From: an uncultured Actinomycetota bacterium
GTDB lineage: Bacteria; Actinomycetota; Actinomycetes; Streptosporangiales; Streptosporangiaceae
Assembly (NCBI GenBank): GCA_963720575.1
Contig: CAVRGA010000002.1
Span: 5,149,209-5,213,208 of the forward strand
Length of the DNA: 64,000 nucleotides
Direction: 5' to 3'
Shown in pieces: positions 5,830 through 58,981 of this stretch. The notes under the pieces were generated by a model, which made no database searches, was not told where the DNA came from, and saw nothing but the letters and a program-made list of their open reading frames with translations. Position 1 is the stretch's first letter. Every line of letters begins with the position of its first letter. A program made the position numbers and the translations under genes.

Positions 5830-5844
5830 GCCTGCCTGACTAGG

Positions 5845-33402: not shown

Positions 33403-35271
33403 ATGGTGCAGGATCTTCCGGCAGAGCGGCCGGAGCCAGCAGTCGCCGCGCAGGAGATCAGCCTCGCTGAGAAGCTGTTCGTGCCGGCGGAGAGGTGGGG
33501 GTGGGAGTACGCCGAGCCCGCGAGGCTCGAAGTTCCGGCCCGGCTCCAGCAGAAGCCCGAGTGGCGCGAGCCCTCGATCACGGCTCGGCCCCCGGTGCCG
33601 CTGACTCGTTCCGCGCAGCGACCGCCGCCCCGGCTGGGCTGGCGCCTGGCGGTCTTCATTCCCGTGACGCTCATCTGCCTGCTGATCGCCGTGCATGCTG
33701 CCGGGATACTCGTCATTCCGCTAGTACTCGGCCTCATCCTGTTCGTGCCGATGGCGTCAGCGGGCACGCGGCAGCCCGCGGTTGGCCCGCATGACCTCCG
33801 CCAGGCGGAGTGGAGCAAGTATCAGCAAGAGCTCAGGCTGTGGGAAACGGCGGTCGCCCAGCACGAGCATGCCGAGGTGGCTCGCCTGGCGGGCATGCCC
33901 GTCTGGTATCCGCTCAGCACCGATGCCGCCGCCCGCCGGGTCGACATCGTGGGCGGCACCGGCGACGGGTGGGCCGCCATGCTGGCGACATTCGGCATGT
34001 CAGCGCTCGCGAACGACGACATGATGCTGCTGCTCGACTTCTCTCAGCATGACGTCGGAGGCGGCTTAGCCGAACTGGCTTCCGTGCCCGATCTGGCGGT
34101 GGAGTGGCTGCATCTCCCGGCCGATCTGGCCGCGATTGACCTGCTTGACGAGCTCGACGCCGAAGCGTGCGCCGAGACGATCGCCGAGGCGGTCGCGACG
34201 CTGCGGCCTGTGCCGGGAAACGCTGATGTGCGCGCCATGCACGCGGCGTTCCTCCGCACCGTCACCAGCAGGCTCGACGGGAGTCTCACCTTCGCCCGGA
34301 TCGCCGCCGGCCTGCGGGTCCTGCAGCGACGCTACGACGACACTGGCGAAACGACCCCGCTGGCCGCGCAGGAGCTACGGGCACTGCATGCCCAGGTCGA
34401 TACCGTCGGCGGCTCGGAACGAGCTGATGGCGAATTGTCATTCCTGTGCGAGATGCTCGAGCTACTGGCTACCGGAAGCGTTACCGGAGTCAATGACCTG
34501 CGATCCTGGCATCAGGCACAGCTGACTGTTATCGCCACGGACGATCTCAATGAGCGCAGGAAGGACCTGATCGACAGGGTGCTGCTTCAGGTGGTGCTCC
34601 AGCATCTGCGCAGGCGCCGTTTCGGCAATGGCCATGGGCTGCTCGCTATCGCCGGGGCCGACCACCTTGGCGCGGTTACGCTGGAAGCGCTGACCCGGCA
34701 CGCCAGGCTTAACGGCGCCCGCCTGATCCTCTTCTTCGAGCATCTGCGCGCCGATGCCGTTCAGATGCTCGGCGGGTCCGACAGCGCTGCCATATTGATG
34801 CGGATGGGAAACGCGCAAGAGGCAGCGGCGGCCGCCGAATTCATCGGACGGGCCCATCGTTTCGTTCAGAGCCAGCTGACCAGGCAGGTCGGCCAGACGA
34901 AGACCGTGTCAAGCGGAGTTACAGGCGGCGGACAGTCAGGGCTCAGCACGACGTCCGGTCAGAGTTCGGGACACAGCCACAGCGCTGGCGCGATATCGCG
35001 GCATTCTTCCTGGCATTCGTCAGTCACGGACTCTCGCATGCTCACCTGGAACGAAACAAAGAACTGGTCGACGGCCTCGTCGGTTACCGAAGGCGAGACG
35101 TCCCAGCGCGTCTATGAATTCGCCGTCGAGCCCACCGAAATCCAGTCGCTGCCGCTGACGGCGTTCATCCTCGTGGAGTCCGGTCACGGTGGCCGCCGCG
35201 TCACGCTCGGGGACTGTAATCCCGGGATCGTGACGCTCGACCGGGTGTCGGCCGCGTCCCGTAGCGCCTGA
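33403..35271 (+). CDS. Membrane-anchored protein (2 TM) with a degenerate P-loop NTPase-like domain, paralogous to the downstream ATPase.
   Basis: 622 aa. TM hairpin LAVFIPVTLICLLIAVHAAGILVIPLVLGLILFV. VDIVGGTGDGWAAML…DDMMLLLDFSQ lines up with AFVCGATGAGKSQTV…PWLVIEPAKS of the next gene, with the Walker A Lys replaced by Trp. Ser/Gly-rich C-terminus. Confidence 0.55.
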   Translation: MVQDLPAERPEPAVAAQEISLAEKLFVPAERWGWEYAEPARLEVPARLQQKPEWREPSITARPPVPLTRSAQRPPPRLGWRLAVFIPVTLICLLIAVHAAGILVIPLVLGLILFVPMASAGTRQPAVGPHDLRQAEWSKYQQELRLWETAVAQHEHAEVARLAGMPVWYPLSTDAAARRVDIVGGTGDGWAAMLATFGMSALANDDMMLLLDFSQHDVGGGLAELASVPDLAVEWLHLPADLAAIDLLDELDAEACAETIAEAVATLRPVPGNADVRAMHAAFLRTVTSRLDGSLTFARIAAGLRVLQRRYDDTGETTPLAAQELRALHAQVDTVGGSERADGELSFLCEMLELLATGSVTGVNDLRSWHQAQLTVIATDDLNERRKDLIDRVLLQVVLQHLRRRRFGNGHGLLAIAGADHLGAVTLEALTRHARLNGARLILFFEHLRADAVQMLGGSDSAAILMRMGNAQEAAAAAEFIGRAHRFVQSQLTRQVGQTKTVSSGVTGGGQSGLSTTSGQSSGHSHSAGAISRHSSWHSSVTDSRMLTWNETKNWSTASSVTEGETSQRVYEFAVEPTEIQSLPLTAFILVESGHGGRRVTLGDCNPGIVTLDRVSAASRSA

Positions 35272-35286
35272 CGCGGCTGGCAGCAC

Positions 35287-38205
35287 ATGCGGCAAGAGGC
35301 CGGCGATCACGCGGCGGCGCCCTGGACGAGCTACCGCTTCGTCCAGCTGCTGGCCGTACCCCGGTCAAAGCGGCCCGCGTCAGCAGCGCGGGACGCCGAG
35401 CCGGACCCGGGTTACCGTCGCCTCACTCAGCTGTTCGCGGCCCTGACATCGGCACATGCGACCTTGTCCGGTCATCGGGCTGACGGCGCCGGGGCGTTCG
35501 CCATGGCGTGGTTCCGGTCACCGGCTCAGGCGGATCACCGCGTCGTGCTCGGCGGGCAGCCCGTCCTCCCCTGGTCAGCGGCAGTATCAGCGAAGCCGGC
35601 GAAGACGCTGCGGATTCCCTACCCGCCGGGCGCCCTTGTCCGGGAGCTTCCTGCCGGCCAGCTGGGCGGCTGGCTGACTGAGTTCCCGTCATGGGTGGCG
35701 TGCACGGCCGTGCCGGACGCGCTGTGGACTAAAGATGACGGCAAGGCTCGGGACGGCTCCTTTGACGACTACGCGGCTTGCCTGTCCGAGCCGTTCGCCT
35801 GGGTCGTGCTGGCCGAGCCGCTACAGGCCGAGGAGCTCGACGAGGAGCTCACCAGCCTCGAAACGCAGATTCCCAGGATGCGGCAGCGGCAGAATTCCGA
35901 GGCCGACCGGGTGCGCCTGGAGCGTTCCGAGGCGCGATACCGGGAACTAGCCAGATCCAGGATCTACGGCACCTGGAGCGTGCGCGTGCTGGTGGGCGGC
36001 ATGAACGTCGCCCAGGCGCGCGCTACGGCGGCGTTGCTCTGCGGCGCGAGCGAGCTGGGCGGCCTGCCCTACGCGCTGACGCCTTCGGGAGGCTGCGGCT
36101 CGCAGGAGAGCCTGCTCCAGGCTTTCGCGCACCGACGGGCCGGAGATGCGCCGTTCGCGGCGAGCACCGAGATGGTCGCCGCCCTGGCACGGCCGCCCGA
36201 GAAAGAAATGCCTGGCATCAGGGTGATCACCCCGCCGACCTTCGACATCACCCCTGAGCACTCGACCGGGACCGGGTTCAGCCTCGGAACGGTGCTGGAC
36301 GAGACGCTGACGTCCGCAGGTGAGTTCCTGCTCTCCCCGGCGACGCTCAACCGGCATGCCTTCGTCTGCGGGGCTACCGGCGCAGGAAAGTCACAGACCG
36401 TGCGGTCCCTGCTTGACGCTCTGGCCACCAGCCAGCCTCCGGTGCCCTGGCTGGTGATCGAGCCCGCCAAGTCTGAATACGCCCGCATGGCAGGCCGGCT
36501 CGCGGGCCGCGGCAAGGTGACGATCATCAGGCCGGGCGACTCGACGTCGGTGCCAGGCTGTCTTAACCCGCTCGAGCCTGAGCCCGGATTCCCGATCCAA
36601 ACCCACATCGACCTGATCAGGGCGCTTTTCCTGGCTGCCTTCGAGGCGTACGAGCCGTTCCCTCAGGTACTCAGCCACGCCCTGACCCGCTGCTATCAGA
36701 ACATGGGCTGGGATCTCGCGCTGAGCGAGTCGCGCCTGCCCGGCATCACGCCCGCTTGGCCGACCCTGACCGACTTGCAGCGCGAGGCGCTCTCGGTGGT
36801 CGAGCACATCGGCTACGGCCGGGAGGTGACCGCCGACGTCAGGGGCTTCATCGACGTCCGGATCAGCAGCCTGCGACTTGGCACCCCAGGCCGGTTCTTC
36901 GAAGGCGGCCATCCGCTCGACCTGGCCAGCCTGCTGAGCAGCAACACCGTCCTGGAGCTCGAGGACATCGGCAACGACCAGGACAAGGCATTCCTCATCG
37001 GCGCCGTCCTCATTCGCGTGGCCGAGCACCTGCGCCAGCGCTGGGGCCGGTATGAGGGCGAGCTGACCCTGCGGCACGTCACCGTCGTCGAGGAAGCGCA
37101 CCGGCTGCTCAAGGTCGCTGAGCTTGGCAGCCCCGCCGCCCACGCCGTCGAGCTGTTCGCCGCGCTGATCGCCGAGATTCGCGCCTACGGCGAAGGCATC
37201 GTCGTGGCCGAGCAGATCCCCGGCAAGATAGTGACCGACGTCATCAAGAACTCAGCGCTCAAGATCGTCCATCGGCTGCCCGCTCAGGATGACCGGCTCG
37301 CCGTCGGGGCGACCATGAACCTCGACGAACGGCAGTCACAGTACGTCGTCACGCTGCCGCCAGGCCAGGCGGCGGTCTTCGCCGACGGCATGGACCATCC
37401 GGTACTCGTCGCGATGCCGTACCGGGAAGAGCAGGAAACCGCGACCGGGGCGAGCCGCGAAGTTGGCCTGGCGGGCAGGCGCGGCATGGCCTGCGGCACG
37501 CAGTGCCGGGTCCGAGCCTGCACGCTGCGCGAGATCGCCCTCGGTGAACGGGCGGCCGCCGATCCGCACGTGATCTTGTGGCTTGAGCTCCTCATCGTCG
37601 CCCACCTGGTCGGCGAGCCAGAGCCCAGGCCGGACCGCACCTGGCTGGCCGGCCTGCGGAAAGCAGCCGACCGCAGAACGCTGGAGTGCGCCGTCGCAAA
37701 CAGGATCGATACGGCGATCACGAGCCGCTATGGCGAGCTGGTCAGCTTCTACCAGCCGGAATCGCTCGCGGCCCACGTCGCCGACTGCGCCATGCGCTGG
37801 CTGGATGGCGCGGCCGGCAGCTGCGAAGGCAATGAGATCGGCTGGCAGGCCGGCCGGTACCGGTGGATCGACGTCGTCAGGTCACTGCACGACGGCACCC
37901 CGAAGGACAGGCCCCATCCGGCCACCGCGAGCTGGCGTGCCCGCGGCCTCGAGCTGCCCGGCAGCACCCAGGCCAAGCAGCTTGAGGCCTGGCGGCGCCA
38001 CCCGGATACGTGGCTGCCATCGCGGACGGTCATCGAGGGCAGGGATAGCCCGCCCGCGTACGAGCGCGCGGCCAGCCAGCTCAGCGACGCCATCGAGCCG
38101 ATCGACCGCCTCGCGCGGGCGGTCACGTTCCTGGCTACCGGCACGGACTGGCCAGAGACACGCCTGTACCCGGAGGCGTGGCGCGCTCGCCGGGAGGCGA
38201 CATGA
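35287..38205 (+). CDS. HerA/FtsK-superfamily (DUF87-like) ATPase with N- and C-terminal extension domains.
   Basis: 972 aa. Walker A AFVCGATGAGKSQTV. Walker B / HerA signature TVVEEAHRLL. Second HerA signature IVVAEQIPGKIVTDVIKNSALKIVHRLPAQDDRLAV. Cys cluster CGTQCRVRAC in the C-terminal domain. Confidence 0.75.
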   Translation: MRQEAGDHAAAPWTSYRFVQLLAVPRSKRPASAARDAEPDPGYRRLTQLFAALTSAHATLSGHRADGAGAFAMAWFRSPAQADHRVVLGGQPVLPWSAAVSAKPAKTLRIPYPPGALVRELPAGQLGGWLTEFPSWVACTAVPDALWTKDDGKARDGSFDDYAACLSEPFAWVVLAEPLQAEELDEELTSLETQIPRMRQRQNSEADRVRLERSEARYRELARSRIYGTWSVRVLVGGMNVAQARATAALLCGASELGGLPYALTPSGGCGSQESLLQAFAHRRAGDAPFAASTEMVAALARPPEKEMPGIRVITPPTFDITPEHSTGTGFSLGTVLDETLTSAGEFLLSPATLNRHAFVCGATGAGKSQTVRSLLDALATSQPPVPWLVIEPAKSEYARMAGRLAGRGKVTIIRPGDSTSVPGCLNPLEPEPGFPIQTHIDLIRALFLAAFEAYEPFPQVLSHALTRCYQNMGWDLALSESRLPGITPAWPTLTDLQREALSVVEHIGYGREVTADVRGFIDVRISSLRLGTPGRFFEGGHPLDLASLLSSNTVLELEDIGNDQDKAFLIGAVLIRVAEHLRQRWGRYEGELTLRHVTVVEEAHRLLKVAELGSPAAHAVELFAALIAEIRAYGEGIVVAEQIPGKIVTDVIKNSALKIVHRLPAQDDRLAVGATMNLDERQSQYVVTLPPGQAAVFADGMDHPVLVAMPYREEQETATGASREVGLAGRRGMACGTQCRVRACTLREIALGERAAADPHVILWLELLIVAHLVGEPEPRPDRTWLAGLRKAADRRTLECAVANRIDTAITSRYGELVSFYQPESLAAHVADCAMRWLDGAAGSCEGNEIGWQAGRYRWIDVVRSLHDGTPKDRPHPATASWRARGLELPGSTQAKQLEAWRRHPDTWLPSRTVIEGRDSPPAYERAASQLSDAIEPIDRLARAVTFLATGTDWPETRLYPEAWRARREAT

Positions 38206-38840
38206 CTGAACTCAGGGAGCCCGAGCCGCCCGTCATCGACCAGGCGGAGCTGAATGACCGCGCCGGCACCCAGGATGCGCCAGCAGCCCAGCGAGACGCC
38301 GAGCTGATCCCAGCACCTCGGCAGCAGGAAGTGCGGGACACCGGCACGACCGACGACCAGCAGGCTGACAACCCTCCGCCCAGCGTCGACGGACCGCACG
38401 AGTCGCCCGAGAGCTGGGCCGGCGACATCAACCCGGCAGACGACCGGGCCAACTGCGGCGACTGCGCGCGTGCCAGTCAGCAAACCTGGGAAGGCGATCC
38501 GCGTGCGGCGGCGATGTCTGCGGACACCGACGGTGAGCCTCCAGAACGGATGGCCGAATGGGCGGGCGAGACGCCCAGGGAGGTCACCATGGCTGAGGTC
38601 GGCGAGCGACTGCAGGACCTTGGGCCGGGAAGTTCCGCGATCGTCGGCTTTGATCGAGAGGACGACGTCGGTCACTGGTTCAATGCCGTCAACGATGATG
38701 GAGAGATCAAGGCAGTGGACGGCCAGAGCGGGGCCGTTGAGCCGTGGCCGCCTACCGTGGACGGACTCGGTTTCAGCGAAGCTGAGATGAGTTACTCGGA
38801 CGCCATTTTCTTTGATCCATCAGGGAGGACCGTTACGTGA
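38202..38840 (+). CDS. Papain-fold toxin-like protein (Tox-PL-type Cys-His-Asp/Gln catalytic triad) with an acidic, disordered N-terminal half.
   Basis: ATGA overlap with the ATPase stop. NCGDCARASQQTW (Cys nucleophile motif), …SSAIVGFDREDDVGHWFNAVNDDGEIKAVDGQSG (His and Asp/Gln). The arrangement matches papain-like polymorphic-toxin domains. Confidence 0.55.
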   Translation: MTELREPEPPVIDQAELNDRAGTQDAPAAQRDAELIPAPRQQEVRDTGTTDDQQADNPPPSVDGPHESPESWAGDINPADDRANCGDCARASQQTWEGDPRAAAMSADTDGEPPERMAEWAGETPREVTMAEVGERLQDLGPGSSAIVGFDREDDVGHWFNAVNDDGEIKAVDGQSGAVEPWPPTVDGLGFSEAEMSYSDAIFFDPSGRTVT

Positions 38841-39115
38841 TTACACACGACGATGCTGAGCGCATCGCGACCGATATCCTCGGGGCACCCGGCCCGGTCG
38901 AGGATCCCGACTGGAGGCTCGTCGAGTTCGACTCAGGCTGGCTCATCAAGAAAAAATCCCAGGGTCGGCGCGGCGGTGTGACCAGGGTTATCGAACGCTC
39001 ATCCGGTGAGGTACTTGAGTTTCCATCGAGCATCTCATCTCGTCGCATCCTGGATGATTTCGCGGCGGTAGCAGATCGCGGCCGCGTCAATAAGGACGCG
39101 CGTGGCGGAGGCTGA
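38837..39115 (+). CDS. YrhB-like immunity protein.
   Basis: 92 aa. ATGA overlap with the toxin stop. MITHDDAERIATDILG…WRLVEFDSGWLIKKKS…VIERSSGEVLEFPSSISSRRIL matches the YrhB-family pattern (MI..EA..IA…GW…G…FPSS). Confidence 0.55.
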   Translation: MITHDDAERIATDILGAPGPVEDPDWRLVEFDSGWLIKKKSQGRRGGVTRVIERSSGEVLEFPSSISSRRILDDFAAVADRGRVNKDARGGG

Positions 39116-39118
39116 CCA

Positions 39119-39470
39119 ATGACGCTGAAGACCGCCCGGCTCACGATCGACCGCAGCTTGCTCCCGCAAAAATGGGACGGCCTTGGCATCAAGTTCGAGC
39201 GTCGTTCCGTCGTGGCCATCAAGGCCTCCGCCCCGCCCCGTGACCTGGTGCTTGTCAAGCCGGCGGGATCGCTTCTCGCCGCCGGCGATGCGGTGGGCCC
39301 CGAGCCGCGCTGGAACAACATTCTCTGCGGGCCTCAAGGCCATGGACGGCACGGACGCGCAAGGGCAGGGCCAGCTGCTCATCACGGGCCAGCGGATCAT
39401 CGGCATGATCGAGAACGGACAGGTGGCAGGCGGGTCGCCGCTCTCCGATTCCACCGGCAACATATAAAAA
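39119..39470 (+). CDS. Hypothetical small protein; the reading frame appears broken near 39290-39330.
   Basis: Frame A: MTLKTARLTIDRSLLPQKWDGLGIKFERRSVVAIKA…PEPRWNNILCG. Frame B continues plausibly to a stop at 39467: …MDGTDAQGQGQLLITGQRIIGMIENGQVAGGSPLSDSTGNI. Confidence 0.25.
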
Positions 39471-39769
39471 CTGGGCTACTGGCCCGGCGGCGGGAAGAAG
39501 AAGCGCCGCAGGCCGCCGGCCGGCGAGGCGCTGCGCGAGGTCCGGGCAGACGGCTCGACCTTTCTCAAAACGCCCATAACCCCTCAGACGCGCCGCCAGG
39601 GCTGCACGCCCTGATGAGACGGGACTGGCCGGCGAGCACCGTTCTGACCCCGGCCCGCCTGACAGCGGCGTGCGACGATGGCGCCTGATGAGCGGGCCGC
39701 AGGCCAGCGGTTGCGGGCCGGGATGCTCCGCAGGGCGGAGCAAGCTCAGGCCGCCCGGCTAATCGGAGA

Positions 39770-40555
39770 TCATCGGCTGCGGATCTGATTACGCACGGGT
39801 GGCTTGCCGAAGATGGCTTCCTTGGAGGCCTGCGCGAGGGTGGCCTGGGTACTGGCGGGCAGCCCGATCCTGTTCCAGTGGAAGATCACGTGCAAAGCGA
39901 TAACTGCCCGAAGTCCGCAGGTGAGTTCCCCTGTTTCCCGCAGCCTCCGCAGGTCGGTGCCTGCGTTTTCGAATGCTGCGTGCCATTCGCCGGCAGCCCT
40001 GGGGATCCCGGTGAGGAGCAGGCGGGCGCTGGCTGTGAAGTCGTCCCATGCGCGGGCTTCCGAGACTAGGGGGCGGTTGATGTGCTGAGCGCGATAATCG
40101 AGGACTCTTGCCCAGACGTCGCCTTGTTCGTTGAGGTCGAGCGCGGCTGCGCGCATGAGTCCCGTGCAAAGCACGAGCGAGCGTTCCCGCCGGTCAGCCG
40201 GGTCCTGGCGGAGGTAGGTGAGGAGGTGGCGGCTGTCGTGGTGGAACAGCGCATGCGCGCTGGCCATGGCTTCGGTGCCGCCGAACGCGTGGGTCTCAGG
40301 TTCGTAGATATCTGCGGTCCAGCTGACTCCGCAGCCGATCATCCTGGAGGCGAGGCCGGGGTTATCGGGTTCCTTCGCGGGCTGGTATCGGATACGCCAG
40401 GGGCCTTTGCGGATGAACCACCAGGAGGTGATTAGACCGTCGGTTTCAGCGGCGGGAAGCACCTGCGAAAGATGGGCGACAGCGTGATGTTCTTGCCGCT
40501 GGCGTGTGTCGCCGAGCCAGGTGATGTTGATCTGCTGCCAGGGAGTCTCGTCCAC
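39770..40555 (-). CDS. Stand-alone SpaB_C-type (lantibiotic dehydratase C-terminal / thiopeptide-type) elimination-domain protein.
   Basis: WWFIRKGPWRIRYQ and IYEPETHAFGG…LFHHDSR motifs. Proposed GTG start at 40555, 14 nt after the LanC stop. The annotated ORF start (40732) would overlap LanC. Confidence 0.7.
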   Translation of the reverse strand: MDETPWQQINITWLGDTRQRQEHHAVAHLSQVLPAAETDGLITSWWFIRKGPWRIRYQPAKEPDNPGLASRMIGCGVSWTADIYEPETHAFGGTEAMASAHALFHHDSRHLLTYLRQDPADRRERSLVLCTGLMRAAALDLNEQGDVWARVLDYRAQHINRPLVSEARAWDDFTASARLLLTGIPRAAGEWHAAFENAGTDLRRLRETGELTCGLRAVIALHVIFHWNRIGLPASTQATLAQASKEAIFGKPPVRNQIRSR

Positions 40556-40568
40556 GGCTGGCCTTTCG

Positions 40569-41639
40569 TCAGGTGAGGAGCAGGCACGCGTCCCACGAGG
40601 TGGCGGTGGTTCCGGCAGTGGCGAGGTCGGCGCCTGCCGTGCCGTCGAGGAGGCCGGTGATTTCGCCGGGGGCAGCGGGAGCCTGCCGGTGCAGGTCGTG
40701 GAGCGGGGTGAGGGATACCGGGGTGGAGGCATCGCCGGCGATACGGCGGGCGGTGGCGAGGAGCCCAGCGGTGCCGTGGCAGAGGCTGCGGCCGGTCAGG
40801 AGCCCGGTCTGGGATGGGTCGGTGACGCAACTGGCGAATGCGGTCTCGGCGAGGTGCTGGCGGGCGGGGTCGCGCAGGGCCTGCGCGGCGAGTTGCTGGG
40901 CGCGGGCGATGCCGGGGGTGCCGTAGCACCAGGACGGCCTGGGCGGGGTCCGCTGGGCTGACGCGCCGTGGTGCAGCTCGGCGCGGGTAATGGCCTGGGG
41001 CCACCAGGTGATTCCGCCGGTGCCTTGCTGCCAGGTATCCAGCCATTGGCAGATGCGGCCGATCGCGGTGGTGTGGCCGTCGACCGTAATGCGGTCGGTG
41101 CGGGTGAGGGCGAGCAGCGCGAGCGGGCCGGCGATGCCGTGGGCCATGCCGAAGTTAGCGTGGCCTCCGGCGAGCTGCGCGCGTCCTGGTCCGTTCCTGC
41201 ACCACCAGCCCGGCAGTGTGCCGATCGGCTCGGTAAGCCGGACCAGGTACTCCAGGATGTCGCGGAGCAGGTCGTGGTCGCCGAGCCGCCGCGCGGTGAC
41301 GCCGAGTCCGGTCAGGCCCCGGATGAGGTCATATTCAGCGTAGTGCGGCTGCTCGTGCCGGTCGATGCGGCGACGGGCGGCATCGAGCCGCTGGCTGGTG
41401 ACGATGGCTGTGCCCTCGGCGGTGAGCGCCTGTGCGTGCGCGAGTCCGGGGCGGTCGGTAGTGGCGAGTACGAAAGCGATTGCGGGGGCGCCGTAGAAGA
41501 GGCTGGCGCCAGCGCCGATGCTGACACCGCCGGCGGTGGCGCGGCGCAGTGCCTCCTGCGCCGCCGGCCAGTTGCTGGTCTCCAGGTGCAGCAGGGCTAC
41601 CCCGGCCATTCCGTCGGCGAGGGATTGCTCGTTGCTCAT
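40569..41639 (-). CDS. lanC: LanC-like lanthipeptide cyclase.
   Basis: 356 aa. Zinc-ligand motifs SWCYGTPGI and CHGTAGL. GxxG repeats (HANFGMAHGIAG). Confidence 0.85.
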   Translation of the reverse strand: MSNEQSLADGMAGVALLHLETSNWPAAQEALRRATAGGVSIGAGASLFYGAPAIAFVLATTDRPGLAHAQALTAEGTAIVTSQRLDAARRRIDRHEQPHYAEYDLIRGLTGLGVTARRLGDHDLLRDILEYLVRLTEPIGTLPGWWCRNGPGRAQLAGGHANFGMAHGIAGPLALLALTRTDRITVDGHTTAIGRICQWLDTWQQGTGGITWWPQAITRAELHHGASAQRTPPRPSWCYGTPGIARAQQLAAQALRDPARQHLAETAFASCVTDPSQTGLLTGRSLCHGTAGLLATARRIAGDASTPVSLTPLHDLHRQAPAAPGEITGLLDGTAGADLATAGTTATSWDACLLLT

Positions 41640-44429
41640 GGTGCTTGCCGGGCGCGGGCGGTGCGGGCTATGGCGCGGGCCAGGCGCAGGCAGTGCCGTT
41701 CGGAGGCGGGATCGACGCTGATCATGCGGGCGTGGTGCAGGTGGAGCAGGTCAGCGAGAACCTGGTCGGGGTCGAGGCCGTCGCGGCTGGCCAGGGTGCG
41801 GTAGGCGGTCAGTGCTGCGGTGAGCTGTTCGTCGCGGAACGGTATCCGGGCGAGAGTGAGCTGGGCGGGGTTCAGGCGGGGTCCGGTGAGGTGCGTGGTG
41901 CCTGCGAGCCAGCTGAGGCCGTGGCCGGTGAAGCTGTCAGCGATGGTGATCATGCTGGCGGCGGTGGCTGCCTGCCGGTCGCCGGCCAGGCGGTGCAGGA
42001 CGGCGCGGGAATCGGCCGCGAAGACCGCCTCGGCGGCGGCGAGTGCCGCTCCGGTGCCGTGCCGGGTTTCGGGCCGGTAGGGGTGGAGGCTGTAGTCGTG
42101 CGCGGCGGCGTGATCGTGCAGTTCCCGGCCAGGCAGCGAGGTGCCGGGCGGTGTCGGCGAACTGGCCGGGGCGCGGGAGCGGGATGCGCAACCGCAGGTG
42201 GGGCGCGGGGTCGGGATACCGCACGAACCACCAGCCTGAGGGCAGGTGGTCGCCCGGGCGGGTGGCGAGGTCGGCCAGGATGTCGTCGGTCCGGCCGTGC
42301 AGGTGCGCCTCGAGCCAGCGTCCCTGTCCCGGGTGGTACTCGACAGTGCTGGCCGGGCGGGCGGGCCGTGCTGGCCGGGCCGGCTGGGTGCGGGTCAGTG
42401 TGAGCACGATCTCTGCGGGGCGTCCGCCGATCCAGCCGGCCGGACCCGGAGCCTCGGTGATCATGATGCGGGCCTGCCGGCTGAGCTGGCTGCGCAGGAT
42501 GGCGAGGTGAGCGGGCTCGTCGAGGTCCAGCTGCAGTCGCACGTCGTCGTCGCCTTCCAGGACCTCGCGGGGAAGCCGGAGCTGTTCGCGGTGGTGCTGC
42601 CAGGCGTCGCGCCATTGCGGCCAGGTCGCGGTGCGGGCGGGAAGCGCTTCCCGGTCGATGATCCACCGGGCGGGGTGCACGATGCTGCGGCCGTGGCGGA
42701 CTCGGGGCAGGAACGGCAGGCTGCTGGCATGTCCCCAGTCGAACCGGCTGCACGGCGCTGTCCACGCGGTCCAGATCTCGGTCAGGAACCGCATCAGGGG
42801 CTGCTGCAGGGCCGGCAGCAGCACGCTGTTGAGCAGCAGCGGCTCCACGGGCCGCCCGGTGACCTTCGATACCAGCCACAGCCGCTGGCCGTCGCCGGTC
42901 ACCGCCAGGTCCTGCACCGTCCGCTGCGGTACCGGATGGAACTCGCCCAGGGGGAGGACGGGCAGCACCTCGGGCACCCGGGCCACTGCCGTCAGGCGGG
43001 CGTCCAGCGGAGGGCCGGAGAGCTGGACGATATCCGCGCCGGGCAGCGCCGTCGGCAGGTACCGGAAGGCACGCCGGTATGAGGCGAGCTCGGCGGGGGT
43101 CAGCAGGTGCAGGAACCGGCCGGCGGCGACGCCGGCGTGACGTGACCCGCTGAGCACCGTCAGCGTGAACTCTCCCCGGTCCAGGTCTGCCAGGGTGCCG
43201 GCGGCCAGGGTGAACCGCAGGTCGGCGTGCGGGACCGGCGGCCGGCGGTCATCGCCGCGTAAGGCACCGATCAGCGCGTCGTCGAGTATCACCTCGGTGC
43301 CGCCGTTCAGCGCGGACTGCTGGGCGACCTGGCCGAGCAGCCGGTCGCGGGCGGTGAACACCGCTGGGGAGCGCCGGGCGGATCCCCGGTATCCGGCGGG
43401 GTATCCCAGGACGTTCAGCAGATCACGGACCGGCACGGCTGCTCCGGGCCCCCACCGCTCGATGAACGCATGGTGGTACTCGGCCCATCCGGGCATGCCA
43501 GGCGCCACCGCGGTCAGCGCCGACGCAGCCCGGCCCGCCTCACGGAGTACCGCGGGCGGCAGTGTAACGGCGGCGTCGGCACGCAGATCGACTGCGACCC
43601 GGCTGCCGGGGCGCGGCAGGGTGTAGCAGCGAGCCGCGTACCCGGCCGGATCGGTTACGGTCATCGCCGGGCGCAGCTCTGACAGCAGCACCCCCGTCTG
43701 CACCAACCCGGCCAGCAGCTGCTCGGCCGCGGCGGCGTCCGCTGGTCCGGCGATCGTCGCGGCGAGCCCGGCGAACCCGGCCGGCGAGCGCGCTGCATCG
43801 ATGGCGGCCCGGACCGGGCCGGTCAGCCGGACCTCGGCATCCCACCTGCGCTCCCCGTCCGTGCGGGCACAGGGCACCACCCACCGGTCGCCGCGCTGAT
43901 ATCCGAGCGTATTCGTCACCACCGCGACGGTGCGCAAGACATCGAGGTCCGTCTCGGCCCGCGTGGCGTGCTCGGCGATGAACTGGCCGTCGGGACGGGT
44001 GACCAGCTGGTGCTCGTCACCGATACGGACTGCCGCGCGGTCACCGAAGCGGACCGGGGCGATGCCGGCGAAGCTGCCGAACGGCGTCGCGCGGGTGGTC
44101 CATCGCAGCAGGTATCGGATCGCTGACTCGGTCAGCCGGCGCAGCCGCTGCCGGGGCACCGGATCACCGGTCACCGCGCTGCTGATCTGTGCGGCCAGCT
44201 GGGGAGCTGCGGAACTGACGGCCGCCGCGAAGCCAGGCAGCCGCCAGGCGAGGGTCAGCCACTCCTGCCACTGCGCGGGAGCGCCCGAGGCCAGGTCAGG
44301 CCAGGCCGGCAGATCCAGGCCGGCCGGATACGAGGCGGCCCGGATGTGGGCCGTGCCTTCTGCGGGAATCATCGGACGCTCCGGGGAAGCTCGGCCCGGC
44401 GCGCGAGGTACCGGACCCGAGGAGGCCAA
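41636..44429 (-). CDS. lanB: LanB-type class I lanthipeptide dehydratase, full length (glutamylation plus elimination domains). Apparent frame break near 42130.
   Basis: ORF 41937-44429 gives the Lant_dehydr_N-like domain and ends …GWWFVRYPDPAPHLRLR…HLAAW, then Arg/Pro nonsense. A third frame from about 42130 reads …YRPETRHGTGAALAAAEAVFAADSRA…, which continues into ORF 41636-41953 (…VLADLLHLHHARMISVDPASERHCLRLARAIA). This parallels the SpaB_C protein at 39770. ATGA overlap with lanC. Confidence 0.8.
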
Positions 44430-44440
44430 CGGATCGGCCG

Positions 44441-44589
44441 CTATGCGTCGGAGCGGGTCGTGCAGGCCGTCCCGCTCGTGTTGCCTGAGCCGCAGTTGTC
44501 GTCAGTGGTGGTGCTGTGGCCGGTGGCGGCGGCCCGGAGTCAACCAGGCTGACGTCCAGGGTGAACTCCGGGGATCGGGTTTCGCTCAT
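44441..44589 (-). CDS. FxLD-family lanthipeptide precursor (LanA), apparently interrupted by a single-base indel.
   Basis: ATGA overlap with the upstream methyltransferase stop. Leader MSETRSPEFTLDVSLVDS(G) contains F-x-L-D. After a G/C run (about 44520-44545) a different frame reads …ATGHSTTTDDNCGSGNTSGTACTTRSDA-stop (TAG at 44441-44443): a Ser/Thr/Cys-rich core. The in-frame continuation lacks any Cys and runs into lanB. Confidence 0.5.
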
Positions 44590-45845
44590 GGCAATTGCCC
44601 TTCTGGTGCGGGGGTGAAGGTGAGGACAAGACGGCTGTGCCGCTTGTCCAGCACCGTCCCGGGCGGCAGGTCGCCGTCGGGAGTCTTCAGGGGCAGAACA
44701 TGCATCACCGGCGCGGGAGTGCCCGCGTCGACCCAGGCGCGCATCTGGCCGGCCAGTCGGGCGGCCGCCGCCGCGGCATCAGGTCCGTGCGCGCGGGCAC
44801 CGAGGTCGAACATGCGGTCGGTCCAGCGCAGCGCTGACCGGTAGCACAACGTGCCGCCATCAAAGGTGGCGGGCGAGCCGAAACGCCAGCCCGGGGCGAC
44901 GACCCCGGCATCGACGGCCTCCTGCTGGGCCGCCAGGACAGCGAACTGCCCGGTGTCAGCCCCGGGAGCGGCTGCCAGCCACATGTCGAGGTCGGCCAGG
45001 ACAGTCGTGGGCGGCAGGCTCACCCCGGCCCACGCCTGCTCGGAAGACCTGGACAGCAACTCGCCGAGCACCCCGGCATCCATCTGCTGGCCCTCGTCGA
45101 GGCGCAAGTGGACGCCCTCGGCGATGTCGACGTACTGCATCTCGTGAGCACTGGCGCCCCGCACCAGGACAAACCCGCACAGCCGCTGGCTGTGACTGAC
45201 CAGCCGGTCGCCCTCCCGGCTCAGCGCCCACGAACGCGTCATCCCGAACGTCCGCAGCGGCACGACCAGCGTCCCAGTCGCGGCAAGCTGCCCGATCCAG
45301 GCCGGAGGGATATCCCAGGCCCCGGCCGTCACGATAATCACGTCGAAAGAACCATCGCCGGCGATGGGCTGCTCTGCGTCCGTGCACACCACGGTCACGT
45401 CGTCATAGCCGGCTGCCGCCAGGCATGCCGTAGCGCGGCTGGTCACGTCAGGATCGATATCGACCGTCGTCACAGATCCGGACGGGCCGACCAGCTCGCG
45501 GAGCAGCGCCGCGTTATAGCCACCGGAGCCGATCTCCAGCACCTGGCGGCCGCGGAGGCCGCCGTCGCTGGCATCAGCGGCCTGGCCGAGCATCTCCGCG
45601 ATGAGCCACGACGCCGACACCGAGCTGACGGTCTCGTCACCGACTCGCTTGGTGATCACGGCGTGGTCAGTCCGGTACGCCTCTTCCAGCCCGGTACCTG
45701 GGGTAAACAGATGCCGCGGCACCGCCCGCAGCGCCGCCTGCACCTCGGGCCGCATGATCAGCCCCTTGTCCACATGATCAGCGACTAGCTGATCAACCAT
45801 CGCGGTGTGAAAGCCCTCGGCGCTCACCGTGCCGACCGTCATCAT
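44586..45845 (-). CDS. Protein-L-isoaspartate O-methyltransferase-like methyltransferase with C-terminal extension (FxLD-system / OlvSA-type).
   Basis: 419 aa. PIMT core VLEIGSGGYNAALL. About 200-aa C-terminal domain. Immediately upstream of, and coupled to, the precursor gene. Confidence 0.8.
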   Translation of the reverse strand: MMTVGTVSAEGFHTAMVDQLVADHVDKGLIMRPEVQAALRAVPRHLFTPGTGLEEAYRTDHAVITKRVGDETVSSVSASWLIAEMLGQAADASDGGLRGRQVLEIGSGGYNAALLRELVGPSGSVTTVDIDPDVTSRATACLAAAGYDDVTVVCTDAEQPIAGDGSFDVIIVTAGAWDIPPAWIGQLAATGTLVVPLRTFGMTRSWALSREGDRLVSHSQRLCGFVLVRGASAHEMQYVDIAEGVHLRLDEGQQMDAGVLGELLSRSSEQAWAGVSLPPTTVLADLDMWLAAAPGADTGQFAVLAAQQEAVDAGVVAPGWRFGSPATFDGGTLCYRSALRWTDRMFDLGARAHGPDAAAAAARLAGQMRAWVDAGTPAPVMHVLPLKTPDGDLPPGTVLDKRHSRLVLTFTPAPEGQLP

Positions 45846-45871
45846 GTTGCCTTTCGTCCTTGGATGGATGA

Positions 45872-46354
45872 TTACTGACGAGAATGATTACTGACGAGTC
45901 CGTGCTGCTTGCGGAACCCGGCCGCTGCCGCCGGAAATCCCTGCGGTGTTACTTCCTGCGGGCCAGTAGGCGAACGCAGGCCGTCGGCCGCCAGCGGCGG
46001 CCTGATGCCAGGCCGTAATCTGGGCGGCCATCGCGCTCGCGGCCTGGCGGACCGGGGACCCCAGGCACGGGACCCGAATTCGACTCCTGACTCATCTGGC
46101 GTCGGCCGGACGGCGAGGACGGCGACGGAGCCGTCGCGGAAGGCGCCGTAGGGAAACCACGCCTTGAAGCGGGTCGCGGCAAGCTCAGTGCCGTCCTGGG
46201 CGGCGACGCGGCAGAACCCGGGCAGCCACGCGCCGAGCCAGAGGTACAGGTCAGCGAACGACATACGGTGCGCGATCGTGATGCCTGTCCACTCCTCAGC
46301 AGGGCGCGCGGAGCTGGCCGCATCGGCGGGGCCTGAGAGTGTGATGTCGGCCAA
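45872..46354 (-). CDS. Hypothetical protein; the C-terminal half of the ORF reads as low-complexity sequence and its true extent is unclear.
   Basis: First about 105 aa look protein-like (MADITLSGP…FADLYLWLGAWLPGF…VAVLAVRPTPDESGVEF). The remainder is Arg/Pro-rich. Confidence 0.3.
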   Translation of the reverse strand: MADITLSGPADAASSARPAEEWTGITIAHRMSFADLYLWLGAWLPGFCRVAAQDGTELAATRFKAWFPYGAFRDGSVAVLAVRPTPDESGVEFGSRAWGPRSARPRARWPPRLRPGIRPPLAADGLRSPTGPQEVTPQGFPAAAAGFRKQHGLVSNHSRQ

Positions 46355-46668
46355 TTCTGATTACCTTTGCTGCTCTTCGGGCGATGTGGCTGGTAAGCCG
46401 ATCAATGGGATGACGTGCTGCGGAGACTACAGGCCAGGCAGGCGACCGAGTTAACAAGCAGTTAACGTTTCCGGGATCGGAACTGCACGCTACGAAAGAC
46501 GCTGACGACTCTTGATGCTCAAGATCAGCAGGAAAGGTCAGGAGATGGTCACCAGATAAGTAGCACTTTCGCCTGTCATCGCCTCGACGGCGCACGCTCT
46601 CATCCTGGAGCGGTCTTAACTGGTGGTTAAGCTTGCGGTGTGGAAAGCCATGTGATCGATGAGGCCTT

Positions 46669-48171
46669 ATGACAGTGGTCAGCCGCACCTGCGCGCGCTG
46701 TAGTCGACCGCTCAGCCGCTATAACAACGGTGACTATTGCGGTTCCTGCGAAGTATCAGACGATCGCGCGAAGAACGACCGAATTAGTCCTGAAGCGGCG
46801 AGCGAGATCGGCGAGCGGCTGAAAGCTGTCCGGCAGCGGCGAGGCATGACCCTCAGGGTCGTCGCTGGGCTCGCCGGCGTCTCCGCGCCGTACCTGTCGA
46901 TGGTCGAGACCGGCAAGCGCTCCCTGGACAGGTACTCGCTGATCCGCGATCTCGCAGAAGCCCTGCGAGTCCCGGCGAGCGACCTTGCGCCTGAGCTGTC
47001 GGAGGCCAGAGCGAAGCAGAGCCTGCCGGTGCCGCTTGCTGGGCCAGACTGGAACTGGTGTAGTGACCCTCTTATCGACCTAGCCGAGCTGGAGGGCACT
47101 GACTTGCACACTCGCCGTAGAGAACTGCTCACAGGAGCCGCCTGCTCAGCGATGGCCATAGCTCTTCCGGATGCTGCGTGGTGGCGGTCGCAAGAGGCAG
47201 TTCAAGCAGCAGTGCCGAAGGTTCAGGGGAAGACCCACCGAATCGGAGCTGACGACGTGGCGGCCGTCCAGCAGCTGGGCCTCGCTTTCTCCCGGCTCGA
47301 CCAGCTGCGCGGCGGAGGTCACAGCCGAAAAGCCATCGCTCAGTATCTGCATTCAAATGCGGCCACGATGCTGCAAGGCTGTTTCGCGTCCGAACGGGTT
47401 CGCTCGGACATGTTCTCAGCTCTAGGCGAGCTAGCGTATTTGTCAGGATGGATGGCATTCGATAATTACGAGCACATCGTCGCCAGACGATACTTCGTTC
47501 TTGCGCTGAAGCTGGCAGCACGTGCGGCGAACGCGTCGCTGGCTGGGCACATCCTGAGGGCCATGGCTCATCAGGCCCTTGACCTGGGCATGGCGAGTCT
47601 GGGCCTGGATCTAGCCGAGGCCTCGGTGGAGGGCCAGCGATACCGGTCGGCCACTCCGCGAGAACGAGCCTTGCTCGGTGTCGTACATGCCAGGGCGCTG
47701 GCTGCGACCGGGAGCAAAGCGGCTGCGGGCAGAGCGCTGCTTAGGGCAGAGGATGATCTCAGGTGTGCCAGCCCTGGCATCGCGGAACCCTCGCGAACTT
47801 TCTTCTTCGGCGAGGCGTCACTTGCGCACGAGACAGGGCGGACCCTGCTGAGCTGCGGCGATACGCGAAGTGCGATCCGGCAGTTTCAGGACAGTGTGGG
47901 AACCAGGGGTGCGGCGTTCCGGCGGACTCAAGCGGTGACCCTGGGCTACCTCGGTGCCGCGCAGATGACGTCTGGTGATATCGAAGAGGCGTGCGCCACC
48001 TGGAGCCAGGCCCTTGACCTCATCGAGGACGGCGGCATCAAATCCGGGCGTACCCGGCAAACAGCTGCCGACATCCGGCAGATGACCACACCCTTCCGCC
48101 ATAGCCGCCGTATTCCAGTCCTGGCGTCAATGGAGGAACGCGTCTCGGCATATCTCGCGGAGATCGACTAG
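46669..48171 (+). CDS. XRE-family HTH transcriptional regulator with N-terminal Cys4 segment and C-terminal TPR-like domain.
   Basis: CARCSRPLSRYNNGDYCGSC. HTH LRVVAGLAGVSAPYLSMVETGKR. Long alpha-helical C-terminal domain. Confidence 0.75.
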   Translation: MTVVSRTCARCSRPLSRYNNGDYCGSCEVSDDRAKNDRISPEAASEIGERLKAVRQRRGMTLRVVAGLAGVSAPYLSMVETGKRSLDRYSLIRDLAEALRVPASDLAPELSEARAKQSLPVPLAGPDWNWCSDPLIDLAELEGTDLHTRRRELLTGAACSAMAIALPDAAWWRSQEAVQAAVPKVQGKTHRIGADDVAAVQQLGLAFSRLDQLRGGGHSRKAIAQYLHSNAATMLQGCFASERVRSDMFSALGELAYLSGWMAFDNYEHIVARRYFVLALKLAARAANASLAGHILRAMAHQALDLGMASLGLDLAEASVEGQRYRSATPRERALLGVVHARALAATGSKAAAGRALLRAEDDLRCASPGIAEPSRTFFFGEASLAHETGRTLLSCGDTRSAIRQFQDSVGTRGAAFRRTQAVTLGYLGAAQMTSGDIEEACATWSQALDLIEDGGIKSGRTRQTAADIRQMTTPFRHSRRIPVLASMEERVSAYLAEID

Positions 48172-57759: not shown

Positions 57760-57859
57760 CGCTTCACCGGCGGTACCTTGGCGGCGCGGGACATCCGAAG
57801 ATGTCAACAAGCAGTAGGTCCAGATCGACAGGCGCTAACTGGTGTGCGAAAATCGCACC

Positions 57860-58981
57860 ATGGCTGGTCGTGAAACTGTGTCAGCTGCTGACCTTGGGCG
57901 CCGCATCGCGCAGGCTCGCCAAGAAGCGGACCTGACTCAAGCTGAGCTTGGACATGTCGTGGGCTTGGATCGAACTGCCATCGCCAAGCTAGAGTCAGGA
58001 GTCCGGAAGGTCTCGGCATCTGAACTGCTGGCCATCGCGTCTGCCCTCGATCGGCCCATCGACTGGTTCGTCTTTGACTCACCGCCATCAGTTGTCAGCC
58101 GTCGATCGGATGCCCTCGCTGGTGGCCGCTCTCGTCTGCTCGACAACTGGATCGATCGCCTGGCTCGCGATGTCGGGTTCCTGGTCGAGCAGGGTGTTCT
58201 TGCAGATACGCAAGAGCGGCCCAGCCTGGAGTTGCCTTCTGACGTTGCGGGTGCAGAACTTCTTGCTGCTCAGGCCAGGGATCTCATGGCTGTATCTGAT
58301 GGTCCTGTCCTCGATCTGCAGCGTGCTTGCGAGCGAGTGGGTCTGCTGGCCTTCTCCCTTGACCTAGGTGAGACGGGCGGTGATGCGGCATACGTCGAGG
58401 TCGGAAGCATAGGCATTGCGTTGGTGAATGGCCGCATAGATCCCGGCCGACGTCGGTTCAACCTTGCGCATGAACTCGGCCACCACCTGTTCGGGGACGC
58501 GTACGCACCGGAGATCACGATTAGTGGAACCGACGACATGGAACGGTTGATCAATGCCTTCGCGATTCATCTGATCTTGCCTCGCGGGTCTGTCACTAGC
58601 GTATGGCGGGCGTTGGCAGACCAGGACGCTCGGCTAGCCGCAGTCGCAATCTCGGTTCGATTCCGCGCAAGCTGGACTGCCACCTGTAGCCAGCTTTGCA
58701 ATCTAGACCTCATCGATACTCCGCAACGCCAGCAGCTGACCAATGCACCCCCAAACGCGGCAGATTTCGTGGCCCTTGGCGAGCGCTGGGAAGCCGAACT
58801 CGAGGCGCCTACAGTCCCGCCGCAATATGGTGTGCGTGTGATGAGCGCTTATCAGGCTGGCCGGCTATCGGCATCACGAACAGTAGAGCTGCTGTGGGGA
58901 ACCGTGTCGATCGAGGAACTACCGGAACAACGCGTGCTACCTTTGGAGTCGCTCCGACGGGAATTCGACCACATGTCATGA
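57860..58981 (+). CDS. XRE-family HTH fused to an ImmA/IrrE-family zinc metallopeptidase domain.
   Basis: HTH LTQAELGHVVGLDRTAIAKLESG. HEXXH LAHELGHHLFGD. Confidence 0.75.
   Translation: MAGRETVSAADLGRRIAQARQEADLTQAELGHVVGLDRTAIAKLESGVRKVSASELLAIASALDRPIDWFVFDSPPSVVSRRSDALAGGRSRLLDNWIDRLARDVGFLVEQGVLADTQERPSLELPSDVAGAELLAAQARDLMAVSDGPVLDLQRACERVGLLAFSLDLGETGGDAAYVEVGSIGIALVNGRIDPGRRRFNLAHELGHHLFGDAYAPEITISGTDDMERLINAFAIHLILPRGSVTSVWRALADQDARLAAVAISVRFRASWTATCSQLCNLDLIDTPQRQQLTNAPPNAADFVALGERWEAELEAPTVPPQYGVRVMSAYQAGRLSASRTVELLWGTVSIEELPEQRVLPLESLRREFDHMS

Follow-up and report, generated by a model that had tools for sequence, protein, structure and literature searches.

A five-gene FxLD lanthipeptide cluster

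The minus strand of the window (the whole 64-kb stretch of DNA analysed here, to which all coordinates refer) carries, in this order, genes for an FxLD-system PIMT-like methyltransferase, an FxLD precursor, a LanB, a LanC and a stand-alone glutamyl-lyase-like protein. The same cassette order is kept in 62 of 65 related loci. The features considered are listed below.

46669–48171, plus strand: XRE-type HTH protein with a TPR tail, 500 aa; PF13560 and PF01381 matches
44586–45845, minus strand: lanSA/lphE, PIMT-like O-methyltransferase of the FxLD system, 419 aa; TIGR04364, PF01135
44441–44589, minus strand: lanA precursor as assembled; leader in frame 1 (44589–44531), core in the −1 frame (44530–44441), TAG stop
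44530–44532, minus strand: missing-base site in lanA; GGGCC followed directly by GCC in the window versus GGGCCCGCC in the independent assembly (Pro20 codon CCC)
44392–44393, minus strand: second one-base deletion, in the lanA–lanB spacer, GGGCCC to GGGCC (Logan contig L085 versus window); no coding consequence
41636–44372, minus strand: lanB/lphB, full-length class I dehydratase with glutamylation and glutamyl-lyase domains; split as assembled, 912 aa after restoring two bases
42124–42131 (around 42128), minus strand: lanB frame-break site; window TGG CC GGG AA, a 2-nt gap versus relatives
40569–41639, minus strand: lanC/lphC, lanthionine cyclase, 356 aa; PF05147, 106.4 bits
39770–40555, minus strand: lphD-type stand-alone second glutamyl-lyase-like protein (SpaB_C/PF14028), 261 aa; TIGR03891

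The methyltransferase matches TIGR04364 with 403.5 bits over model positions 4–394 of 394 (cut-off 320) and PF01135 over residues 18–212, its N-terminal half matches solved PIMT structures, and the named proteins among its 1656 homologues are called "methyltransferase, FxLD system". Together with the adjoining precursor, these matches place it in the FxLD system and agree with its previous description as an OlvSA-type PIMT-like enzyme. LanC carries the motifs WCYG and CHG, likely Zn ligands, and is 74.5% identical over its full length to the LanC of a related locus (L002). The stand-alone lyase-like gene starts 13 nt past lanC, and its product covers positions 1–262 of the 263 in TIGR03891 (176.8 bits); in 62 of 65 related loci such a PF14028 gene likewise sits within 600 nt after lanC. 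BLASTP found no significant similarity between this protein and LanB's own lyase domain, and its sequence brings up no solved structure. Lyases encoded on their own, in addition to a full LanB, have been grouped with syn-lyases (PMC9486935); by analogy, the protein is probably a syn-eliminating glutamyl lyase of the CoiSA-GL/SptBb type that makes (E)-Dhb.

With a full-length LanB (PF04738 and PF14028), whole only after an inferred 2-nt restoration at 42128, and a LanC (PF05147), the locus qualifies as a class I lanthipeptide cluster, and both FxLD models, TIGR04364 and (for the restored precursor) TIGR04363, score above their cut-offs. The assignment to the FxLD family in an earlier note on this DNA thus holds, as do the places and identities of the five minus-strand genes that it listed; its single LanB open reading frame at 41636–44429 does not. 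The same note took the first four genes to be translationally coupled. Indeed, the methyltransferase stop overlaps the precursor ATG and the lanC ATG overlaps the lanB stop (ATGA in both cases); however, lanA and lanB lie 68 nt apart as assembled, so that not all four genes are coupled. We conclude that this five-gene cluster is ordinary and belongs to a lanthipeptide family that is very common in actinobacteria.

The XRE-type HTH protein encoded divergently from the cluster is a possible regulator, its membership in the cluster being uncertain. The gene and its TrmO_N neighbour also adjoin the methyltransferase in two related loci (L001 and L083), and 8 of 82 loci have such a gene in divergent orientation no more than 1.5 kb upstream. 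Simple scans gave no promoter-like matches and only two terminator-like ones, both inside the methyltransferase gene and close to the number in shuffled sequence. Defence-like genes, for a HerA-like ATPase, a toxin and an RmrA-like regulator, are also found near the cluster.

The precursor gene and its intact counterpart

As assembled, the open reading frame from ATG 44589 reads MSETRSPEFTLDVSLVDSGPPPP... and contains no Cys, while the −1 frame reads ...AAATGHSTTTDDNCGSGNTSGTACTTRSDA and stops at TAG 44443–44441. These translations agree with the earlier reading of a Cys-less in-frame precursor and a Ser/Thr/Cys core, ending at a TAG, in a shifted frame. Putting back one C gives the true lanA product, the 49-aa MSETRSPEFTLDVSLVDSGPAATGHSTTTDDNCGSGNTSGTACTTRSDA, with the leader motif FTLD at residues 9–12 and with two Cys and ten Ser/Thr in the core. 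Against TIGR04363 (cut-off 30) the assembled open reading frame reaches 14.7 bits, through its leader half only, and the joined peptide 46–49 bits; it is the missing base alone that makes the assembled window fail this model. The break had been placed in the G/C run at 44520–44545, and there it lies, a C missing between 44531 and 44530. All 16 relatives that align across this stretch have one more base than the window at the site. Moreover, of 82 related loci, 79 have the precursor in one frame, and none has it split.

The earlier note had also raised a precursor located elsewhere. A profile of the precursors of 24 relatives, run against the 64-kb window in six-frame translation, picked up the two halves of lanA (44444–44589) and nothing else. 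The missing third Cys (TTRSDA) was considered as a sign of decay and dismissed, since intact relatives (L005, L008, L019 and L022) also have two Cys in their cores.

The exact 49-aa LanA (P0241) is on record from Logan only, on a contig (L085) assembled from run ERR10755946. This contig corresponds to window positions 44662–43335 over 1330 nt, with no mismatches and two one-base gaps, at 44530 and 44392; at both, Logan has GGGCCC and the window GGGCC. On L085, leader and core lie in one frame, the split being confined to the window assembly, and the encoded peptide scores 49.2 bits against TIGR04363. Three further Logan contigs from the same run (L082, L086 and L087) match the window with 100% identity over 1397, 7118 and 2031 nt (10.5 kb), L082 at the stand-alone lyase gene. 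Only two differences were thus found across the 11.9 kb compared, both at GGGCCC sites. This identity indicates that the Logan contigs and the window represent the same strain.

Given an intact gene on otherwise identical DNA, the lanA frame break goes back to a motif-specific error in the consensus of the 5.8-Mb source contig, where one C of a GGGCCC hexamer was lost. By our own count, the compared regions contain five GGGCCC sites, of which two have collapsed, and 16 such sites are kept in the window, so that the error is not universal at this hexamer. If the long reads are nanopore reads, base methylation at GGGCCC, as by an ApaI-type methyltransferase, could account for deletions tied to this motif. 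The re-inspection against reads that had been called for is in effect provided by the Logan assembly of that run. The former framing of the precursor as recoverable only across a frame break is therefore superseded, and the cluster exhibits no special frame-break biology. The fold of the lanA–lanB spacer, considered as an attenuator hairpin, is no stabler than shuffled sequences (z = +0.9). A frame break suspected at about 39330 from a codon-usage track was discarded: L086, with a separate 59-aa gene call, is identical to the window there, which excludes a difference between the assemblies.

A second break, in lanB, and the origin of the breaks

The span 41636–44429 measures 2794 nt, which is not divisible by 3, and LanB can therefore not be one open reading frame over it. 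A second break, absent from the earlier note, lies within lanB: the gene reads from ATG 44372 to 42129 and then, in another frame, from 42127 to 41636, and tblastn searches with the LanB proteins of two related loci (L002 and L005) returned 44372–42129 in frame −3 and 42127–41639 in frame −1. Translation probably starts at ATG 44372 rather than at TTG 44429. At TGGCCGGGAA, lanB is two bases short compared with all 14 relatives aligned at the site, which is assembled as TGGCCGGG. We propose that the original sequence was TGG GCC CGG GAA (W-A-R-E), which contains GGGCCC (TGGGCCCGGG). The closest relative (L083) has TGG GCA CGG GAA CTG here, that is W-A-R-E-L, equal to the restored reading, and another (L035) has TGGGCCC at the position of the break.

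The corrected frame has no internal stop, and its product matches PF04738 with 533.6 bits and PF14028 with 107.4 bits (positions 1–252 of 255), whereas the uncorrected fragments alone reach 32.7 and 25.3 bits. Identity to the L002 homologue is 72% and 70% on either side of the break. A homology search with the C-terminal 315 aa of the corrected LanB found nothing near-identical, and an exact look-up of the corrected protein gave no match. As no independent contig over 42128 was retrieved, the claim that this break too is an artefact rests on analogy; by that analogy, a GGGCCC most probably shrank to GGCC here through an error like that in lanA. We therefore favor, at a probability of roughly 85%, an intact, ordinary FxLD/LanSA cluster in which the break in the precursor is a consensus error and the break in lanB most probably an error of the same kind.

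In a sister assembly (L083), the same cluster is broken about four times: twice in the methyltransferase, once in LanC and, by a one-base difference from the window, at the 5′ end of lanB. One Logan contig differs from this assembly by a single base exactly at the LanC break, in the frame-restoring direction.

Were the breaks real, the cluster would be pseudogenised, with frameshifted alleles of lanA and lanB, and the Logan contig would stem from a co-occurring strain with an intact cluster. Two breaks in one operon are indeed what relaxed selection would produce and are unlikely for uniformly random errors, and the reading of the lanB break as an artefact is one by analogy. In addition, another gene of the window, encoding tryptophan 2,3-dioxygenase and located outside the cluster, around 22,400–22,560, is frame-broken, making some real pseudogenes in this genome possible; exact look-ups of guessed corrected sequences of that gene gave no match. 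However, 11.9 kb of Logan contigs align to the window without one mismatch, so that a second strain would have to be indistinguishable from the first but for a pair of like indels, one of them non-coding, at the same hexamer. Moreover, L085 passes both sites unbranched, and the corrected genes show neither stop codons nor a drop in similarity. We therefore consider decay of the cluster unlikely.

The unbranched course of L085 also bears on the idea that the GGGCCC indels constitute a heritable on/off switch, with GGGCC and GGCC alleles coexisting with GGGCCC and the long contig capturing the "off" state. Under such phase variation, length changes at GGGCCC would turn off lanA and lanB together in a presumed anti-phage lanthipeptide cluster, and three lesions (at 44530, 44392 and probably 42128) do fall on the same palindromic hexamer. 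Yet runs of three bases are poor substrates for slippage, one of the lesions is intergenic with no obvious role, and the breaks in the sister assembly occur in different sequence contexts; motif-specific consensus errors account for the lesions more simply, and we regard a switch as very improbable. Least credible of all is a joining of leader and core by programmed −1 ribosomal frameshifting or by slippage during transcription. The two frames are related by −1 inside a G/C-rich run, but TCC GGG CCG offers no X XXY YYZ slippery heptamer, all aligned relatives, even those at 85% nucleotide identity, are single-frame with one more base at this point, and a split precursor occurs in 0 of 82 loci. 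The existence of otherwise identical DNA with the extra base, on L085, effectively refutes this explanation.

Proposed maturation and relation to known systems

Maturation of the restored precursor can be proposed along the lines of characterised relatives. LanB, directed by the FTLD leader motif, would glutamylate Ser and Thr residues of the 49-aa LanA and would then eliminate glutamate to leave dehydro residues, with the stand-alone lyase probably syn-eliminating one glutamylated Thr to (E)-Dhb. LanC would close two thioether rings, one from T29 to C33 (a T-D-D-N-C A-ring) and one onto C43. Subsequently, the PIMT-like enzyme would methylate the conserved ring Asp, D31, which would pass through an aspartimide to isoAsp/Asp. 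LanA has the conserved Asp of the family motif T-x-D-[G/N]-C (T29 D30 D31 N32 C33), and family conservation makes D31 the likely target. Of the two sites named before, the DD pair is supported in this way, through D31, and the C-terminal SDA is not.

According to earlier descriptions, no class I type is more abundant in Actinobacteria than this family, which goes under several names, LanSA "lanthimiditides" and anti-phage "lanthiphage/lanthivirin" clusters among them. With regard to the NCBIfam FxLD system (TIGR04363 and TIGR04364), both models exceed their curated cut-offs and no difference at the level of sequence family is apparent. In the account given in PMC13001092, the olv cluster of Streptomyces olivaceus NRRL B-3009 (OlvA, OlvB, OlvC and OlvSA) yields a "lanthimiditide" (Acedo et al. 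2019, as cited there), and the ring Asp is methylated after cyclisation and converted via an aspartimide to isoAsp/Asp; such activity is known for OlvSA only. The window cluster resembles olv in its class I LanB and LanC, its FxLD-type leader, a PIMT-like LanSA adjoining the precursor and a conserved Asp inside the N-terminal MeLan ring; unlike olv, it has a second glutamyl lyase, and its core has Asn rather than Gly after the conserved Asp.

The coi cluster (lanthiphage_Sco) of Streptomyces coelicolor A3(2) (CoiA1-3, CoiB, CoiC, CoiSA and CoiH) shares the full-length LanB, the second PF14028 lyase, the PIMT-like methyltransferase and an A-ring motif, Thr-Asp-Asp/Asn-x-Cys. There, (E)-Dhb and hence D-allo-L-MeLan arise through the extra lyase, and the cluster protects against phages. 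In coi, however, lyase and methyltransferase form one fused protein, CoiSA; in the window they are separate genes at opposite ends of the operon, and coi has three precursors and the sulfoxide-forming CoiH where the window has one precursor. In a search for a CoiH/LphF-like extra gene after the lyase, the downstream open reading frames of L002 and L005 matched neither each other nor the window. The window core, TDDNCGSGNTSGTAC, with two Cys, is unlike the characterised Olv and Coi cores.

The architecture of methyltransferase, precursor, LanB, LanC and second glutamyl lyase matches that termed lanthiphage or lanthivirin (Shomar et al., bioRxiv 10.1101/2024.06.26.600839), a name for class I clusters of Actinobacteria that combine LphB and LphC with the accessory LphD (PF14028) and LphE (PF01135); all four of these genes lie in one operon here. 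The dominant lanthiphage motif, TXDXCXXXCXXXC, is only partly present (TDDNC, then no CxxxC). Phage protection in Streptomyces has been shown experimentally only for five Streptomyces clusters, with other core variants, and the family is of current interest for this activity. Lanthiphage clusters are frequent in Salinispora and Frankia (bioRxiv 10.1101/2024.06.26.600839), and the cassette of the window was also found in genomes of both genera.

The core variant of the window, TDDNCGSGNT…AC, lies next to the methyltransferase in dozens of genomes. The product of this core type is chemically uncharacterised, as the earlier note expected; the family itself is already known, and the novelty of the core was overstated. 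The value of the present analysis is chiefly corrective, in that the locus proves to be a standard cluster with an assembly error, from the class I lanthipeptide family that is commonest in actinobacteria. Single-base consensus errors in long contigs can hide RiPP precursor genes and split LanB for annotation pipelines; those found here are tied to GGGCCC, and the sister assembly has the same problem. For expression of the two-Cys core variant, the corrected sequences now comprise the verified 49-aa LanA and the inferred 912-aa LanB.

Composition of the FxLD-type cluster and its relatives

The cluster consists of five tandem genes, all on the minus strand.

Genes of the lanthipeptide cluster
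44586-45845, minus strand: PIMT-like methyltransferase, 419 aa; TIGR04364 ("methyltransferase, FxLD system"), 403.5 bits (cut-off 320 bits); PF01135 match
44441-44589, minus strand: short precursor region (lanA), comprising the ORF from ATG 44589 and the -1 frame
44372 (probable ATG) to 41636, minus strand: LanB, from alignments of homologous LanB proteins
40569-41639, minus strand: LanC; PF05147
39770-40555, minus strand: stand-alone lyase, 261 aa; PF14028/TIGR03891

The earlier note's assignment to the FxLD family of class I lanthipeptide clusters is borne out by the methyltransferase score and by the intact precursor, which reaches 49.2 bits on TIGR04363 ("FxLD family lanthipeptide"; cut-off 30 bits). 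LanB had been placed at 41636-44429; its end holds, but relatives point to ATG 44372 as the most likely start, rather than TTG 44429, which would leave a 68-nt spacer between the precursor stop and lanB. ATGA overlaps are found only at the methyltransferase/lanA and lanB/lanC junctions, so the proposed translational coupling of the first four genes applies to these two pairs but not to lanA/lanB.

The cluster belongs to an already known, very common family. We detected 1656 homologues of the methyltransferase, the closest named ones from Micromonosporaceae, Frankia and Streptosporangiales, and fetched 81 loci, namely the closest relative's metagenome contig (L001) and 80 loci from species-representative genomes; a sister assembly, L083 (ENA ERZ25039479, 'contig_12866', 4713-9987), was added afterwards, giving 82. 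L083 is the closest long relative, with 85% nucleotide identity across the entire 6.2-kb cluster. The order methyltransferase, precursor, LanB, LanC, stand-alone lyase recurs in 62 of the 65 loci having methyltransferase, LanB and LanC.

Frame break in the precursor gene

The ORF from ATG 44589 reads MSETRSPEFTLDVSLVDSGPPPPATAPP..., lacks Cys and continues into lanB; translation in the -1 frame gives ...AAATGHSTTTDDNCGSGNTSGTACTTRSDA, ending at TAG 44443-44441. On TIGR04363, the assembled ORF scores 14.7 bits and the joined peptide 46 bits. The central observation, a precursor split across frames, was therefore correct, as a Cys-free ORF is followed by a core in the -1 frame and the cut-off is reached only when the two are joined. 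A single-frame precursor is present in 79 of the 82 loci (nearest: MSETASPEFTLDLDLVDAGPAATGYVSATDDNCGSGNTSGTACTTKCDGGY in L001 and MTETDSREFTLDISLVDAGPAGTGYSTSTDDNCGDGNTGGTACTTRPDAC in L083) and a split precursor in none, and all 16 relatives aligned across the stretch carry one extra base compared with the window at the junction of GGGCC and GCC. Restoring one C yields the peptide MSETRSPEFTLDVSLVDSGPAATGHSTTTDDNCGSGNTSGTACTTRSDA. In exact-sequence look-up, this peptide is recorded, in Logan assemblies only (P0241, 49 aa), and no record was obtained for the 97 aa that the assembled ORF encodes.

The precursor had been described as recoverable only across a frame break; in lanA this break is an assembly artefact. 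Logan contig L085 (run ERR10755946; 1330 nt) carries the restored peptide and aligns to window 44662-43335 with no mismatches and exactly two one-base gaps, one at 44530 within the precursor, restoring the frame, and one at 44392 in the lanA-lanB spacer; both sites read GGGCCC in Logan and GGGCC in the window. Three further contigs of this run match the window with 100% identity and no gaps (L082, 39518-40914; L086, 32424-39541; L087, 46713-48743), and the run thus contains the same strain. Over the 11.9 kb compared with Logan contigs, the only two differences are window deletions at the palindromic hexamer GGGCCC, and two of the five GGGCCC sites within the compared regions are collapsed in the window. 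This pattern is characteristic of a motif-specific consensus error rather than of strain variation or mutation, and the error may be linked to GGGCCC methylation. The window retains 16 GGGCCC sites.

Frame breaks in lanB and elsewhere

LanB, previously regarded as one gene, is also split into two frames, which had been overlooked: homologues match 44372-42129 and 42127-41639 in different frames, and each of the 14 relatives aligned at TGGCCGGGAAC has two bases more there than the window. LanB is one ORF in L002 (about 928 aa) and L005 (947 aa from an upstream TTG). Inserting one G and one C converts TGGCCGGGAA to TGG GCC CGG GAA and recreates GGGCCC; the repaired site (42124-42131) reads W-A-R-E-L, the residues of L083 (TGG GCA CGG GAA CTG), and another relative, L035, carries TGGGCCC at this position. 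The corrected LanB has 912 aa, is free of internal stops and matches PF14028 positions 1-252 of 255 with 107.4 bits, compared with 1-70 (32.7 bits) and 200-252 (25.3 bits) for the assembled fragments; its identity to L002 LanB is 72% before and 70% after the break. Searches for an independent contig spanning 42128 yielded none; we infer from the comparisons above that the lanB break is very probably an artefact as well.

The window comes from one contig of 5.80 Mb, deposited at NCBI and ENA without protein names; most other genes in the window are intact, among them NRPS ORFs totalling 8.3 kb. In L083, the corresponding cluster contains roughly four frame breaks, of which two fall in the methyltransferase gene, one in that for LanC and one, judged by a one-base difference from the window, at the 5' end of lanB. 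At precisely the site of the LanC break (L083 position 9334), Logan contig L084 (run ERR11571142) has a one-base difference from L083 that restores the frame and lies 4 nt from the contig end.

A tryptophan 2,3-dioxygenase (TDO) gene at 22028-22700 (plus strand) is interrupted by a frame break: one frame encodes the part whose residues 10-125 match PF03301 and residues 24-131 of TDO structure 2NOX, and a different frame encodes the conserved C-terminal GTGGxxGxxYL segment (2NOX 227-265); guessed repairs found no match by exact-sequence look-up. At 59800-60460 (plus strand), the codon-usage signal changes frame twice and peptide-like translations, without family match, run across frames; the region possibly represents a gene that is degraded or interrupted by frame breaks.

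Predicted product and neighbourhood

PIMT-type methyltransferases are the commonest accessory enzymes in class I lanthipeptide clusters. A gene for one adjoins the precursor gene in each of the four commonest class I precursor families of Actinobacteria, which conserve a core Asp. This Asp belongs to a TxDGC motif in which Asn, Thr or Asp at times takes the place of Gly (PMC13001092). According to that source, OlvSA acts on OlvA after cyclisation and methylates the Asp within the ring; the methyl ester proceeds via an aspartimide to hydrolysis, giving about 70-80% isoAsp. By analogy, T29 would be joined to C33 in an A-ring (T-D-D-N-C) with D31 as the methylated Asp, and a second ring would be closed onto C43 from T38, S39 or T41. 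Loss of a third Cys as a sign of decay is ruled out by two-Cys cores in the intact relatives L005 (ending ...TTRSDAG), L008, L019 and L022. The product, thought likely uncharacterised, is indeed chemically undescribed, but its core type is carried by dozens of genomes.

In the coi cluster, an additional lyase leads to (E)-Dhb and hence D-allo-L-MeLan, and stand-alone extra lyases from clusters with a full LanB group with syn-lyases (PMC9486935; bioRxiv 10.64898/2026.08.26.747419). The stand-alone lyase here showed no significant pairwise similarity to the lyase domain of the cluster's own LanB, and no solved structure was detectable by sequence. Clusters with LphB, LphC, LphD (PF14028) and LphE (PF01135) have been termed lanthiphages, five of which, from Streptomyces, conferred phage protection (bioRxiv 10.1101/2024.06.26.600839).

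Neighbouring features
33403-39115, plus strand, first: 622-aa protein without match in family search
33403-39115, plus strand, second: HerA/FtsK-like ATPase, 972 aa; PADLOC mad8/HerA matches
33403-39115, plus strand, third: papain-fold glutamine-deamidase toxin, 212 aa; PF15644
within 33403-39115, plus strand: 92-aa ORF translationally coupled to the PF15644 toxin
57842-58981, plus strand: HTH and M78-peptidase (IrrE-like) protein; PADLOC RmrA and CapP/CapH-type regulator models

The 33403-39115 region resembles a module of the toxin or defence type immediately beside the lanthipeptide cluster, and the 57842-58981 protein represents another defence-island-like element. Downstream of the lyase gene, overlapping ORFs at 39119-39688 and 39288-39467 (both plus strand) show no clear-cut coding frame; a single 59-aa gene is all that the Logan annotation places in the 39119-39688 region, and the independent assembly has the identical sequence there. 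The methyltransferase gene and a divergent HTH gene are separated by 823 nt (45846-46668), compared with 328 nt in L001, and this spacer holds a 160-aa ORF (45872-46354, minus strand) with some coding signal, for which we found no Pfam match and no counterpart in the 82 related loci. A non-ribosomal peptide gene cluster spans about 1600-22700, with condensation, adenylation, carrier, methyltransferase, thioesterase and TubC-type docking domains, accompanied by an Irp3-like thiazolinyl imine reductase, two P450s, asparagine synthase, an O-methyltransferase, an aminotransferase and the broken TDO.
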